Source: Escherichia phage WPEC3. From it: 64,000 nt of DNA. Shown here piece after piece: positions 53,107 through 59,149 of the stretch. Numbering within the stretch: the stretch's first letter is position 1; each line of letters starts with the position of its first letter. The stretch lies in sequence record PV611058. One strand, 5' to 3'. Position numbers and translations under genes: made by a program. The notes under the pieces are model-generated. The model searched no databases. It was not told the origin of the DNA and saw only the letters and a program-made list of their open reading frames with translations.

Positions 53107-55836
53107 TTAATGCCAACGTGTACCAGAGCTTGAAGGAACACCAGAACTTGCAGGGATAGCAGAACCACGCTTAGTTGTACTAGGTCTGTATGTCAAGAAT
53201 CGTGTTACCTTTTCAGTATCAATTGACGTAATACTCGTACTTCCAGTAACAATATCACCAACATATACGTTTGTCAATGTCTCATCAAGAAGAGTTGTAC
53301 TGATAACGTATGCCGCTTTTCTTGTGTTACGGTTCATTTGAATGTAAAGATAAAAAGTACTGTTAGCTGGGTTAGTTTTAATAGTACTTAATTCTATGGT
53401 TTGAATCGCTAATCTATCAAACATACCACCAAGGAATACCGGAACTTCACGGGTGAAGTACACAGTGAAACCTTCAGCAACATCTTGTGAAACTACTACG
53501 ATTTTATCTTGTACTGTTCCTGAACCATCAATCAACCCATCCATCTGTGCTGATGTTGTCCCAAAGAGACTAAACACTGCTTTAGTTTGATAGTCTGAAT
53601 CTTGAAGATGATAGTATCCAAATCCAACACCTGGTATAACTCCGTGCTGGAATGCATTGCCATTATCTATGTAGCTGGATGACATAAATCGGTTAGATGT
53701 AATCAAACCATTCACTGTTTTAGCAATCATCAATTTGAATTGAGCATTACCAGGTTGTGAAAACTGATGAACTGCATCAACACCAATATAACCAAAACCA
53801 GAATACTTAGCAACAGTTAGACCAGTACAGCGTTTCATATAGGCTTCGGTTACAATACCTGTTACAGAATTAAGTGTTTCGTATCTAGAACTCACCATAG
53901 ACGCAGAACTAATATTGGTTCCTGAAACCGTGACATCAACTTCAGAATATATTGCATAACCTTGGTTATTTCCTAAGTTATATGCAGAAACCACCGCAAT
54001 AGATTTTGAGAAAGAACTATCTGGTACATAATATAAAGCAATTTTACCAGAAAATGCTCCTACTATTCCAATATTAGCAAGTATTTCTTGTTTTAATGTT
54101 TCCAGAACATTATCACCAATTGTATAAGAACCATCAAATTCTAAAGTATCTGGGTTAAACAAACCACCACTTGTTTTGTATACACCTTCAATGAATGATG
54201 TCCCATAACATTTAACTGAACCGTCAGTATCAATTAGTGAAATCATACCTGTATATTTGAAATCATCACCAAGACGAGTTCGGTTAGCTTGTGGTGCAAA
54301 ACCATTAAGTGTTGTATTGTTTTGTACTGAATTGAACTGGAAGGTTGGATCAGTACCAATTTCAGAAAATACTGTATTGTTATAACCATATGACTCATCT
54401 TCATATGTTCCAGAACATGCTAACAGTACTTTACGTTTATCAATAAAACGTGTTCCTAAAAGGTTTTCGCCTACTGCACTACCATATGTTGGTGCAACGT
54501 TTACAAATTTGGAATTGTTCGCTTTACGAGTACTGGCAACCCAACTATCATATGGTGTTCCTGTTACGTTATAAACCTGAATACCATAGGTTTCAGATGA
54601 ACTCCAACGAGCACGTGTGCTGAATACTAAACCGTCATAGGTTTGGCATATAGAACCAACGTTACCTAATTGTGGAACACCTAACTGTGTACCCATGAAG
54701 TTATTCATCTCAATGGCAAATGGGTTTGTTAATGTGAAACCATCAACATCATTATATTCCGCTGCTATTGGTGCTCTACTACTTCCATCAATTGATAATG
54801 ATTTAGAGTTGATAGTATAAACAAAACTAAAACCACTAGCATAAACAGTACTAATATATAGATTTGATACTAAACGGTTAGTTGGGAATAATGTAATTCT
54901 AATCTTTGATAAATCTGGACTTACGTTTGCTTGTATATTATAATCTGTATAATCTGAATATTCAACTCGTGTAACTGGTGAAGTGCATTCAAATAATGAA
55001 TCACTACTAGCTCCAACTGAATATAATCTTTCATAAATTTTCAAATTATTAGCACTTGTGTAGTTAACACTTCTTAAGGTTTGACCAGAAAAACCAGTAA
55101 CCTTAGCAAAAGTACTCATAGTACCATCTTTAATACTACTTGTATTAACAGTATATAATGTTAAAGCCAAACCATAGTTTGCTATAGTAGTGTCTTTGCA
55201 CCACACAAATACTTTATCATTAACGATATGTGCATACAATGGTTTATCTGTACCAAATGATGTAGCAGCGATAGAAGCGTGAATATGTGCAACTTCGTTA
55301 AATGTACCATTTGTTAAAGTGAAAATATAATTACTTGCACTAGATAGGCTAACTAGTAATTCATAACCATTCGTTCCGATGAACTGTTTAACATTTTCAG
55401 TACTTGGAAGAATTCTAGGATGATATTTTGATGTAGTACTGATAACACTACTTTGTGTTAGTGCATCAATATTACGCAAATCACGAATGAATGCATAGTA
55501 ATATCCTTCAGTACTACCATTTGTACCAGCACGTAATACCACACCAGTACCATCATCTTCGACTATTGTTGGTTGCATACGGTATACATCTGAAAGCGAC
55601 GTTGCCCCTTCGTATGAACCATTAACGTTTAATGGTAGATAATCCATTTCCCCTATACGGGAGATTGGTAACATATCAAGTATTTTTTGAACTTCTGATC
55701 TTTTATAAATTGGATAGTCAACAATACCTGTATTTGCGTCTGGTGCTGTACCATTAAAAGTACGCATAGCGTACTTTCCACCAATTGCCAAATTTCCAAG
55801 TATAGCAGCACTACCAATGATGCGTTTGGATGACAT
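53107..55836 (-). CDS. large N/T/S/G-rich protein (909 aa), paralog A of a three-member family with shared terminal motifs; putative virion or host-recognition protein
   Basis: N-terminal LPIS..G...YLP and GTNGS.EG; internal GVGFGYY...FGTT and VVSQDVAEGFTVYFTREVPVFLGG; C-terminal ...TYRPSTTKRGSAIPASSGVPSSSGTRWH shared with 55853..56440 and 56453..59149. Confidence 0.55.
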   Translation of the reverse strand: MSSKRIIGSAAILGNLAIGGKYAMRTFNGTAPDANTGIVDYPIYKRSEVQKILDMLPISRIGEMDYLPLNVNGSYEGATSLSDVYRMQPTIVEDDGTGVVLRAGTNGSTEGYYYAFIRDLRNIDALTQSSVISTTSKYHPRILPSTENVKQFIGTNGYELLVSLSSASNYIFTLTNGTFNEVAHIHASIAATSFGTDKPLYAHIVNDKVFVWCKDTTIANYGLALTLYTVNTSSIKDGTMSTFAKVTGFSGQTLRSVNYTSANNLKIYERLYSVGASSDSLFECTSPVTRVEYSDYTDYNIQANVSPDLSKIRITLFPTNRLVSNLYISTVYASGFSFVYTINSKSLSIDGSSRAPIAAEYNDVDGFTLTNPFAIEMNNFMGTQLGVPQLGNVGSICQTYDGLVFSTRARWSSSETYGIQVYNVTGTPYDSWVASTRKANNSKFVNVAPTYGSAVGENLLGTRFIDKRKVLLACSGTYEDESYGYNNTVFSEIGTDPTFQFNSVQNNTTLNGFAPQANRTRLGDDFKYTGMISLIDTDGSVKCYGTSFIEGVYKTSGGLFNPDTLEFDGSYTIGDNVLETLKQEILANIGIVGAFSGKIALYYVPDSSFSKSIAVVSAYNLGNNQGYAIYSEVDVTVSGTNISSASMVSSRYETLNSVTGIVTEAYMKRCTGLTVAKYSGFGYIGVDAVHQFSQPGNAQFKLMIAKTVNGLITSNRFMSSSYIDNGNAFQHGVIPGVGFGYYHLQDSDYQTKAVFSLFGTTSAQMDGLIDGSGTVQDKIVVVSQDVAEGFTVYFTREVPVFLGGMFDRLAIQTIELSTIKTNPANSTFYLYIQMNRNTRKAAYVISTTLLDETLTNVYVGDIVTGSTSITSIDTEKVTRFLTYRPSTTKRGSAIPASSGVPSSSGTRWH

Positions 55837-59149: not shown

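Follow-up and report, generated by a model that had tools for sequence, protein, structure and literature searches.

Three paralogous genes beside nrdG in an Escherichia jumbo phage: candidate tail proteins with a possible part in host recognition

The three-gene unit and its family

The DNA analysed here (the window: 64,000 nucleotides of Escherichia phage WPEC3, record PV611058) comes from a jumbo coliphage of the PBECO4/121Q group, standing at 99.6% to fEgEco12. Beside nrdG (59226-59696) it carries three minus-strand genes, here called A, B and C (Table 1). The initial annotation had read them as paralogues of 898, 195 and 909 aa, and BLASTP bears this out: A and C match over their full length (E=3e-54, 26% identity), B matches A in its C-terminal (E=3e-17) and N-terminal (2e-5) parts, and B matches C at E=4e-22 and 2e-4, all of which puts the paralogy far above chance level.

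Table 1. Genes, signals and regions of protein A at the locus
Feature	Coordinates	Strand	Remarks
Terminator-like hairpin AAGCACCCAATGGGTGCTT and T-run	59203..59221	-	Directly past the nrdG stop; parts the cassette from the nrd genes
Candidate late promoter CATAAATA	59183..59190	-	41 nt upstream of the A ATG
Gene A	56453..59149	-	898 aa; large paralogue; heads the three-gene unit
A residues 1-67	58949..59149	-	Conserved N-segment, helix at about 44-53; proposed N-terminal part of a shoulder/anchor domain
A residues 68-773	56831..58948	-	Variable core: predicted beta-propeller and further beta domains
A residues 774-866	56552..56830	-	Conserved C-module: predicted beta-sandwich, RBP/TssK shoulder-like fold
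A residues 867-898	56456..56551	-	Conserved Gly/Ser/Thr/Pro-rich tail, invariant terminal Trp
Gene B	55853..56440	-	195 aa; 'headless': N-segment joined straight to C-module and tail
Gene C	53107..55836	-	909 aa; second large paralogue, core divergent
Terminator-like hairpin AAGCTCGTCTATTGACGGGCTT and T-run	53078..53099	-	8 nt past the C stop; closes the three-gene unit

With gaps of only 12 and 16 nt between them, A, B and C form one three-gene unit bracketed by two intrinsic terminators. The second of these is overlapped by a sigma70-like promoter (TTGACG-17-TATAAT, 11/12, at 53088-53060), which would serve the next genes. Ahead of A, CATAAATA agrees in seven of eight positions with the late-promoter consensus TATAAATA, which is that of phage T4, and on this likeness it may be taken as the candidate late promoter of A; ATAAATAC also stands 41 nt upstream of the open reading frame at 13108-15072 and 50 nt upstream of that at 24071-24616. 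For three small downstream paralogues a kinship to CBB gp150 was considered and set aside as weak (E=0.035); they have no Pfam match. The cassette is indeed as remote from the tail genes as had been remarked, with more than 21 kb to the sheath gene (29244-31907), but the distance is not the oddity it was taken for, since the virion genes of Rak2-like jumbo genomes are dispersed (PMC7247149).

The family is large and unannotated. The phrog_3573 profile matches A and C over their full length (E=1.4e-263 and 1.2e-230), and phrog_26864 does the same for B (E=9.5e-84), both being labelled 'unknown function' in PHROGs. In all, three PHROGs of that label make up the family, with 564 clusters at 50% identity across jumbo phages, Rak2-like and nucleus-forming alike. 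A Pfam search with A, B and C gave no match at E<=1, and searches of all PDB sequences, with single sequences and with profiles, gave nothing relevant and no similarity to any solved receptor-binding protein (RBP). Orthologues of A are phAPEC6 gp323c, fEgEco12 g242, 121Q gp499 and CBB gp147; those of C are CBB gp149, 121Q gp501 and fEgEco12 g244, and phAPEC6 has an intact one as well (tblastn), yet without a CDS in that record. B has 28 orthologues of about 195 aa each, down to 41% identity, whereas its positional orthologue in CBB, gp148, is a full-length protein, matched by profile A2 in an N part (1-78, E=6e-19) and a C part (78-195, E=7e-46). The genome paper of fEgEco12 makes no mention of g242-g244, and the phAPEC6 'tail fiber protein' gp314c was ruled out as a fourth family member, for it belongs to phrog_2871.

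Conserved ends, diverging cores and predicted folds

Conservation is concentrated at the two ends of the proteins. Between A and C, identity is about 32% over residues 1-140, falls to 14-23% over 141-720 and rises to 38-43% over 721-898, in keeping with the divergent centre proposed from the sequence, and the orthologues of A follow the same trend of conserved ends and variable core. The internal blocks GxGFGY(Y/F) and VVSQDVA(E/Q)GF.VYFT.E.PV are found in both A and C. As for the terminal motifs thought to be common to all three, the N-motif is present in each (LLPISHYG in A), but in B (LPLSQYGELY) the Y comes one position early; the full C-terminal tail, R(F/L)xTYRPSTTx(K/R)GS..., holds for B and C only, whilst A reads RLDIFGASLEAAGSSFPVSYGLPSQTGTINW and agrees with no more than its second half (GS..P.S.G.P..GT..W). 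These motifs are kept in homologues: P55, G60, P66, G880, G888, P890 and W898 of A are invariant in 34 sequences reaching down to 25% identity, and the tail of B is nearly invariant in its 28 orthologues (consensus VSRFxxYRPSTTQKGSxFPVSTGxPxQTGTINW). The cores of orthologues, compared with the PBECO4 group, are 85% identical for A and 73% for C, and they diverge gradually, with no mosaic pattern of the kind that the supposed swapping of central domains should leave.

AlphaFold (AF2) models A as compact and all-beta, with several domains that include a propeller, and not as the beta-helix or fibrous fold that had been anticipated; neither Beta_helix nor Pectate_lyase is matched in Pfam. An intramolecular chaperone at the C-terminus was not borne out either: Peptidase_S74 and the other Pfam families give no match, and the tail has about 30 residues and is predicted to be disordered (pLDDT 29-37 in the monomer model of A). 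The conserved module is modelled as a beta-sandwich resembling the shoulder of RBPs and of TssK, and in the AF2 model of B its core (62-165) reaches pLDDT 87-96. The initial annotation had treated the N- and C-terminal modules as separate units; more likely, the N-segment and the C-module are two halves of one domain, a split-domain topology that is not firmly predicted because the helix completing it has a pLDDT of about 57 in B, and the N-segment 1-67 of A one below 50.

The headless paralogues point the same way. At least two paralogue lineages gave rise to them independently, and they are found in several phage groups; all of them retain the N-segment, and all share one junction, with profile position 62-75 as the end of the N piece and 772-773 as the start of the C piece. 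This junction is seen in the B-type minis, whose nearest relative in an identity matrix is CBB gp148, in the A-type minis P0198/P0201, which are 51-55% to A-lineage ends against 32% to B, in gp18 of Erwinia phage RAY and in a 229-aa protein of L016. Since headless forms recur with an identical junction, the N- and C-ends behave as one unit.

What lies between the two ends in A (68-773) is proposed, from the model, to be a nested 'head', and would be the candidate glycan-binding or glycan-processing part of the protein. Among its residues E90, D92, R99, H183, D345 and R509 are invariant. Its nearest propeller structures are lectin/sialidase-like, from carbohydrate-binding or carbohydrate-processing proteins, but these matches are generic (<10% identity, Z <=13) and so do not separate a lectin from an enzyme or from a purely structural part. 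On another reading the propellers of A and/or C would be active enzymes (sialidase-, GH130-, GH43- or GH32-like), a virion-borne glycosidase degrading host surface polysaccharide at adsorption, and thereby depolymerases and not lectin-type binders; we hold this to be unlikely.

Relatives in virions, tails and baseplates

If the three proteins belong to the virion, their orthologues should be met there, and for A this is the case: phAPEC6 gp323c (98.6 kDa) was detected by mass spectrometry in purified virions, weakly, with four peptides and 5.6% coverage (PMC7247149). The orthologues of B and C fall outside the virion-proteome searches because they are unannotated in phAPEC6. Mutant proteomics has placed another member of the family, SPN3US gp168, in the tail (PMC5105663), and it is matched by profile A1 at positions 57-348 (E=5.6e-12) and 761-868 (E=6.2e-17). 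Two further lines were rejected as virion evidence: the 'structural protein' labels of CBB gp148 and gp149 are by homology only, gp147-149 not being listed in the CBB mass spectrometry table (PMC5259590), and the RAY and Deimos-Minion data come from crude lysates and so speak for expression only.

The orthologue of A, which is scarce in the virion and has no assigned role, might be looked for among the 'hairy' whisker fibres on the tail sheath and capsid of phAPEC6/CBB/fEgEco12-type phages, the more so as the hair-like appendages of phAPEC6 and CBB were given no gene by their authors (PMC7247149, PMC5259590). The compact all-beta globular models, however, are at odds with CBB hairs of about 119 nm (PMC5259590); the family is also conserved in SPN3US, RAY, Goslar, EL and OBP-type phages, and the literature covered reports no such hairs on these; in the SPN3US relative a baseplate-fibre anchor forms part of the same chain, and the shared module resembles baseplate RBP shoulders, not decoration proteins of sheath or capsid. 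That A, B and C are the whiskers is in our view very improbable.

[quoted passage not shown] In p2 RBP and TssK an N-terminal shoulder is followed by a neck and a C-terminal head, whereas in A and C the sandwich is C-terminal (774-866 in A) and the head (68-773 in A) is nested between N-helix and sandwich, a propeller instead of a jelly-roll; in A, B and C, moreover, the conserved tail comes after the shoulder, about 30 residues long and with Trp as the last of them. The phages themselves differ too, a jumbo myophage here and a siphophage for p2. By analogy with these systems, where the shoulder attaches the protein itself to the baseplate and not other proteins to it, A, B and C could form homotrimers that clamp a baseplate loop.

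A second comparison is offered by the gp131 family of phiKZ (gp131-gp135), which builds hetero-hexameric baseplate fibres and consists, like A/B/C, of tandem paralogues of very unequal length (the mini member gp132 has 110 aa, B 195 aa) that share terminal segments and differ in the rest; a propeller is present in the largest member of the phiKZ family and predicted in ours. Tandem unequal paralogues, a shared terminal segment and relatives in virion and tail (gp323c, gp168) are all found in our family. Sharing, though, is confined to the N-termini in phiKZ and extends to both ends in A/B/C, and the seven-bladed propeller of gp131 (PDB 4GBF) is C-terminal, the predicted one here nested. Homology of A/B/C to phiKZ gp131, gp132, gp133 and gp146 was rejected (hhalign probability <1%), no gp131-like N-terminal baseplate-anchoring domain was found in A/B/C by hhalign of A1/A2 against gp131, gp132 and gp133, and hmmsearch found no family member in phiKZ 118-199 kb; phiKZ gp27, which has 898 residues in the atlas paper, and its partners gp26 and gp28 show no similarity, the equal length being coincidence.

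The two designs do meet in other phages. SPN3US gp168 (phrog_7449) and RAY gp18, gp19 and gp20 are true homologues of A/B/C which keep the unit of about 860 aa (E down to 1e-150), the RAY proteins being tandem paralogues of which gp18 holds the headless form. Whilst A, B and C begin only some 50 residues ahead of the LPxSxYG motif, these homologues start with an extra gp131-like anchor of 130-550 aa, and some are extended at the C-terminus as well. The N-terminal domain of phiKZ gp131, which cryo-EM locates where the fibres attach to the outer baseplate (PMC13250141), matches the N-termini of SPN3US gp168 (E=1e-8) and RAY gp18 (E=2e-5), and in RAY gp18, gp19 and gp20 the A/B/C unit sits C-terminal to an anchor of this type. 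In SPN3US gp168 and RAY gp20 further sequence follows the shoulder-like module, which is not always terminal, and the module may be a node for trimerisation or branching instead of the baseplate anchor.

Branching brings the tailspikes to mind. Like the branched tailspike systems (KP32 gp37/gp38, and the multi-depolymerase Klebsiella jumbo phages), the cassette of some relatives has receptor-recognition genes side by side, although A/B/C themselves are not beta-helix tailspikes and lack a Peptidase_S74 chaperone. In L011, a syntenic relative, a KP32gp38-like capsule depolymerase of 684 aa adjoins the trio (PDB 6tku, E=1e-105; phrog 'tail spike', E=5.5e-164). It had been considered, together with the 193-aa mini, as a split gene, with the core of A in the former and the shoulder in the latter, but this was rejected, the 684-aa protein being unrelated to A (E=0.14). 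In L014 and L015 two tailspikes flank the trio, Phage_tail_beta+Peptidase_S74 (PF13884 in the 780-aa neighbour of L014) and Phage_tail_beta+Beta_helix; the cassette of the window has no tailspike gene. The tailspike docking segment has a short [LF]P[IV]S.G.P motif that is met again in A/B/C, both in their N-motif and in their C-tail. This is a resemblance only, and homology of that docking segment to the A/B/C N-segment was rejected as not significant (hhalign ~1%).

Such neighbours could be read in another way, with A/B/C as a structural adaptor or branching hub, a platform at the baseplate periphery that docks other fibres and tailspikes (here, those of the separate fibre block) and not the host, its propellers being protein-protein interaction domains and B a spacer or adaptor. 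The tailspikes inserted right beside the trio in relatives have a docking segment of about 60 aa in common at their N-termini, and in L011 the depolymerase tailspike adjoins an A-type paralogue without a head; the recurrent motif fits as well, beta-propellers are frequent protein-interaction scaffolds, and the orthologue cores, at 85% and 73%, are only moderately variable, below typical fast-evolving RBP tips. Yet the motif similarity is insignificant (hhalign probability ~1%), the nearest propeller structures bind or process carbohydrates, the core remains the least conserved part, and the trio is conserved in phages without extra cassette tailspikes, the window included; the shoulder, where it is known from TssK and p2 RBP, serves the protein's own anchoring. 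We regard the adaptor as rather improbable, if worth keeping in mind.

The tailspikes inserted at this place also bear on a non-structural function tied to the neighbouring genes for anaerobic ribonucleotide reductase, which the conservation of the nrdG/nrdD adjacency across the phage group might suggest. They join the strong terminator between nrdG and the cassette, the separate late-promoter-like element before A, the orthologue of A in purified virions and the predicted RBP/baseplate-type folds in arguing against it, and that reading is already effectively refuted.

A possible role in host recognition

Taken together, these results make it probable, though well short of certain, that A, B and C are co-transcribed paralogous tail proteins at the baseplate periphery that belong to the host-recognition apparatus of a Rak2-like jumbo phage, in whole or in part. 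The receptor-binding or adhesin cassette first proposed for the locus gains from this an indirect but convergent support (the A orthologue in virions, the tail protein gp168, the shoulder fold, the propeller, the tailspike neighbours), whilst the beta-helix, the chaperone and the swapping once attached to it fall away. Neither of the outcomes that the initial annotation had named as refuting came about, since the orthologue of A is met in virions and homologues keep the motifs. Each chain would carry a trimer-type 'shoulder' anchor like those of lactococcal RBPs and T6SS TssK, composed of the conserved N-segment (helix and LPxSxYG) and the C-terminal beta-sandwich, and this shoulder could grip a baseplate protein by one of its loops, if the analogy to TssK/TssG and to p2 RBP/Dit holds. 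The two shoulder halves of A and C would be parted by an inserted core of some 700 residues, a rapidly diverging lectin/sialidase-like propeller with further beta domains, which would form an outward head that may touch and bind host surface glycans as receptors; B would be the anchoring domain without the head. The disordered tail with its invariant final Trp is probably a partner-binding arm. We know of no RBP for which a split shoulder with a nested head has been described.

More tentatively, and with the balance leaning against it, the three could assemble as an A:B:C 1:1:1 heterotrimer through their paralogous shoulders, an asymmetric receptor-binding unit in which two chains bear propeller heads, unlike each other, and the third is headless; the vacant position and exposed tail of this third chain would dock additional fibres or tailspikes. 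The set is large-large-large in CBB, large-mini-large in the window, mini-large-large in L011 and headless-large-large in RAY, and such a heterotrimer would explain why it is kept at three, why headless members recur with the same junction and why tailspikes are adjacent. In phiKZ fibres the candidate gp133/gp134/gp135 arrangement would be its counterpart, from which it would differ by the split shoulder carrying a nested head.

Rak2-like jumbo phages (PBECO4, 121Q, phAPEC6, fEgEco12, CBB, GAP32) are under consideration for therapy and biocontrol, whilst more than 80% of their genes are without a function and most of their host-recognition apparatus has yet to be assigned. A large unannotated family, never assigned a function, here gains a testable role, and the nrdG-adjacent locus becomes a proposed host-range cassette, into which relatives plug capsule depolymerases. 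If confirmed, the combination of split shoulder, nested propeller head and headless partners would extend the RBP/TssK design to jumbo myophages, and would provide a natural scaffold for the exchange of receptor-binding heads.

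Paralogy and organization of the three genes

The three genes next to nrdG, here called A, B and C (together, the cassette or trio), occupy 53107-59149 on the minus strand, exactly as the initial annotation placed them (see table). A and C align over their full length (BLASTP, E=3e-54, 26% identity); B matches the last ~120 and first ~65 residues of A (E=3e-17 and 2e-5, respectively) and of C (E=4e-22 and 2e-4), and as it aligns only to both ends of the large paralogues, it corresponds to these two ends joined. Identity between A and C is ~32% at residues 1-140, 14-23% at 141-720 and ~40% at 721-898, and the orthologues of A follow the same gradient, bearing out the conserved ends and divergent centre first described. 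The proposed shared motifs stood in part: the C-terminal tail holds for B and C, its 'TYRPSTT' half being absent from A, and the tyrosine of the N-terminal motif is displaced by one position in B. In 28 clusters, with identities as low as 41%, B keeps its length of ~195 aa; it is a maintained gene and not a decaying remnant.

The window comes from a jumbo coliphage whose cassette is 99.6% identical to those of fEgEco12, EC.P1 and Ecwhy_1, and ~76% identical to that of the PBECO4/121Q/phAPEC6 group (Asteriusvirus, 'Rak2-like'). All three genes are labelled 'hypothetical' in the records of all these phages, and the publication of the fEgEco12 genome is silent on them. The hairpins flanking the trio, its own promoter-like element (putatively a late promoter, CATAAATA) and its short intergenic gaps (12 nt between A and B, 16 nt between B and C) indicate a self-contained three-gene unit, insulated from the adjacent nrd genes; a non-structural, nrd-linked role for the trio seems to us scarcely credible. 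The hairpin 3′ of C is overlapped by a sigma70-like promoter (TTGACG-17-TATAAT) for the next genes.

Coordinates of the cassette and of the features discussed with it
Feature	Position	Strand	Remarks
Gene A	56453-59149	minus	ORF of 898 aa
Gene B	55853-56440	minus	ORF of 195 aa
Gene C	53107-55836	minus	ORF of 909 aa
Hairpin then T-run	59221-59203	minus	directly 3′ of nrdG
CATAAATA	59190-59183	minus	7/8 match to T4 late-promoter consensus; 41 nt before ATG of A
Second terminator-like hairpin	53099-53078	minus	3′ of C
ATAAATAC	59183-59190	minus	gene A
ATAAATAC	13067	plus	ORF 13108-15072 (654 aa)
ATAAATAC	24666	minus	ORF 24071-24616
Small paralogue	52470-53036	minus	188 aa
Small paralogue	51942-52463	minus	173 aa
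Small paralogue	51436-51945	minus	169 aa
RlaP-domain gene	49797-51035	minus	412 aa; RNA repair pathway DNA polymerase beta family, PF10127, E=8.8e-17
DUF4326 gene	59674-60000	minus	overlaps nrdG start
Docking-segment ORF	366-1262	plus	298 aa
Giant ORF	1384-6300		1638 aa; no Pfam match
Giant ORF	6450-12170		1906 aa; no Pfam match

ATAAATAC, similar to the T4 late promoter TATAAATA, stands 40-50 nt 5′ of three ORFs and may serve phages of this group as a late-promoter element. Immediately downstream of the cassette (51436-53036) lie three small tandem paralogues, assigned to phrog_18641 and phrog_7868 ('unknown function') and without Pfam match, and the same set stands behind the trio in two metagenomic relatives (L011 and L014). 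The RlaP and DUF4326 genes also keep their synteny with the cassette in metagenomic relatives.

Predicted fold and headless forms

The model of A, built on a 34-sequence alignment, is an all-beta protein (pLDDT 84.1, pTM 0.78), with low confidence only at 1-25, 40-67 and 867-898, stretches that coincide with the conserved region around the N-motif and with the tail. The structure matches of the shared module are led by the lactococcal phage p2 RBP (score 9.7, 118 residues aligned), followed by the cyanophage A-1(L) tail fibre (8.0), phage 1358 RBP (7.7), SPP1 gp22 (7.3), the HFTV1 tail fibre (6.9), TssK (6.6, 5.9 and 5.4), a phi812 baseplate protein (5.9) and BPP-1 Mtd (5.1).

In B, residues 75-165 have the strand pattern of A at 772-863. 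Headless proteins, in which the N-motif is joined directly to the conserved C-terminal module (C-module), recur with the junction always the same (N piece to profile position 62-75, C piece from 772-773). In an identity matrix of real headless proteins ('minis') and 'virtual minis' cut from the large paralogues, A pairs with CBB gp147 (63%) and C with CBB gp149 (54%); B-type minis are closest to the termini of CBB gp148, a full-length member (42-57%). Two minis of metagenomic origin, P0198 and P0201, are closest to the A lineage (51-55%, versus 32% to B). Further cases are RAY gp18 and a 229-aa protein beside a 954-aa member in a distant contig. Taken together, these indicate at least two independent origins of headless forms. 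Most simply, N-segment and C-module would fold into one autonomous anchoring domain, whose N-helix is weakly predicted (pLDDT ~57 in B), and the ~700-residue core would be nested within that domain, which survives its loss.

The distant contig is a 218-kb jumbo-phage contig (L016 1-8354; JGI 3300034161 Ga0370513_000002); its single large member and headless partner adjoin a row of nine or more tandem DUF7941 paralogues encoded on the other strand, another tandem paralogue expansion.

Family distribution and relation to phiKZ-type fibres

Pfam has nothing for A, B or C, and neither single-sequence nor profile searches matched any PDB sequence. In PHROGs, A and C fall in phrog_3573 and B in phrog_26864, with phrog_7449 (a 1714-position profile) also matched, all three annotated 'unknown function', and no functional annotation for the family was found in the sources searched. 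Searching 1.84 billion representatives with a profile gave 564 clusters (255 with E<=1e-30), built on a conserved unit of ~860 residues with variable N-extensions of about 40-270 or about 550 aa and C-extensions giving proteins of up to 2488 aa, next to mini forms of ~194 aa. By tblastn the family occurs in 165 phage records, including the Rak2-like phages CBB, BF, fHe-Yen9-04 and XbC2, and the phiKZ-related jumbo phages Erwinia RAY/Deimos-Minion, Goslar, PCH45, SPN3US, EL and OBP. That A, B and C could be the 'hairy whisker' proteins of phAPEC6/CBB is very improbable, given their compact fold, the family distribution and the baseplate-type module.

A 2026 cryo-EM atlas of phiKZ describes an outer baseplate with twelve fibres, each fibre being a candidate hetero-hexamer built from tandem paralogues (gp131x3, gp133, gp134 and gp135). 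The gp131-like N-terminal segment common to these sits under gp130, and the propeller of gp131 is at the far end (PMC13250141). The phiKZ gene series encodes 771, 110, 462, 457 and 463 aa. A, B and C have no similarity to phiKZ gp131, gp132, gp133, gp146 or gp26-28, and no family member lies in phiKZ 118-199 kb. Relatives nevertheless connect the two families. In SPN3US gp168, residues 22-155 match gp131 37-168 (E=1e-8), and the A/B/C unit follows at 578-885 and 1318-1422. In RAY gp18, a gp131-like N-terminus (E=2e-5) continues directly into N-motif and C-module; RAY gp19 shares the N-terminus of gp18 (E=2e-30) and adds the full unit. In nucleus-forming jumbo phages the A/B/C-like unit is thus the distal part of gp131-type baseplate fibres. 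A, B and C themselves lack the defining gp131-like N-domain and are thus not gp131 family members, but functionally the analogy is strong. RAY gp18 (L003 1760-3022) is annotated 'putative membrane protein', although it combines a gp131-type anchor with a headless shoulder module, and gp20 carries the same label despite being a full member with the complete unit.

Virion evidence, host-range neighbours and proposed function

The phAPEC6 orthologue of A, gp323c (98.62 kDa), was detected in purified virions by ESI-MS/MS (4 unique peptides, 5.6% coverage; PMC7247149 Table 1). Intact orthologues of B and C lie unannotated in the phAPEC6 record (MK817115.1, L004 239582-242923), where only a 114-nt 'gp322c' is called, so the published proteome could not have detected them. 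Proteomics of mutant particles placed SPN3US gp168 in the tail, and the same study counts it among the phiKZ gp131 paralogues (PMC5105663). It is very likely that A, B and C are tail or virion components. The 'structural protein' labels of CBB gp148 and gp149, unsupported by CBB's own MS table, and the RAY MS, made on crude lysate, were set aside. In the CMSTMSU record (UNVERIFIED), the genes orthologous to B and C are broken into many fragments.

The order nrdD, nrdG, paralogues, three small paralogues, DUF4326 and, further on, RlaP is kept in CBB and metagenomic contigs. In L011, nrdG is followed by a 684-aa tailspike (phrog_19988, E=5.5e-164), closely homologous to the solved K21 capsule depolymerase KP32gp38 (PDB 6tku, E=1e-105), and then by an A-type mini and two 918-aa members. 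In L014/L015, the trio A(902), mini(199) and C(919) stands between tailspikes of 780 aa (Phage_tail_beta+Peptidase_S74) and 705 aa (Phage_tail_beta+Beta_helix). In phAPEC6, an extra MS-detected 929-aa tail protein, gp314c (phrog_2871; L013, 232782-235571), lies a few genes downstream of the cassette, between an RlaP-like and an acyl-carrier-protein gene; the window (~49.4-49.8 kb) and fEgEco12 have no gene at this position, a tail-gene indel near the cassette. The position beside nrdG, earlier seen as anomalous, is therefore a conserved site keeping and exchanging host-range genes.

The L011 and L014 tailspikes share a ~60-aa N-terminal docking segment, to which the first ~64 residues of window ORF 366-1262 are 39-47% identical (E 1e-10 to 1e-14); with the two adjoining giant ORFs, this ORF is presumably the main fibre block. 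The motif [LF]P[IV]S.G.P recurs in the N-motif and C-terminal tail of A/B/C (protein A 53-60 and 882-890), in ORF 366-1262 and at the L014 and L011 tailspike N-termini. Profile comparison of these segments was not significant (E 0.04-0.13), and the motif may be a common docking peptide or chance.

RBP anchors of the shoulder type are known, as are propeller heads and fibre paralogues in tandem; not previously described for this family is their arrangement here, with a proposed split shoulder and nested head, the conserved Trp-terminated tail, the recurrent headless partners and a trio kept across lineages. The tailspike neighbours and the moderate divergence of the cores favour a rival reading, in which the trio is a hub where other fibres dock and is not itself a host binder; we consider such a hub unlikely; direct binding of the host by A, B and C is about evenly poised. 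That the propeller is an enzyme seems improbable. The picture that we favour, with some reserve, is that the three genes are co-expressed, probably late, and that the shoulder-type domain would mount their products on the baseplate periphery as homotrimers or mixed trimers. B would be a headless anchoring unit, acting as spacer, adaptor or third chain of a heterotrimer; an obligate A:B:C heterotrimer, whose intentionally headless chain is a docking site, is rather doubtful. The propeller-containing cores of A and C would then project and engage host surface glycans, as lectins or possibly glycosidases.
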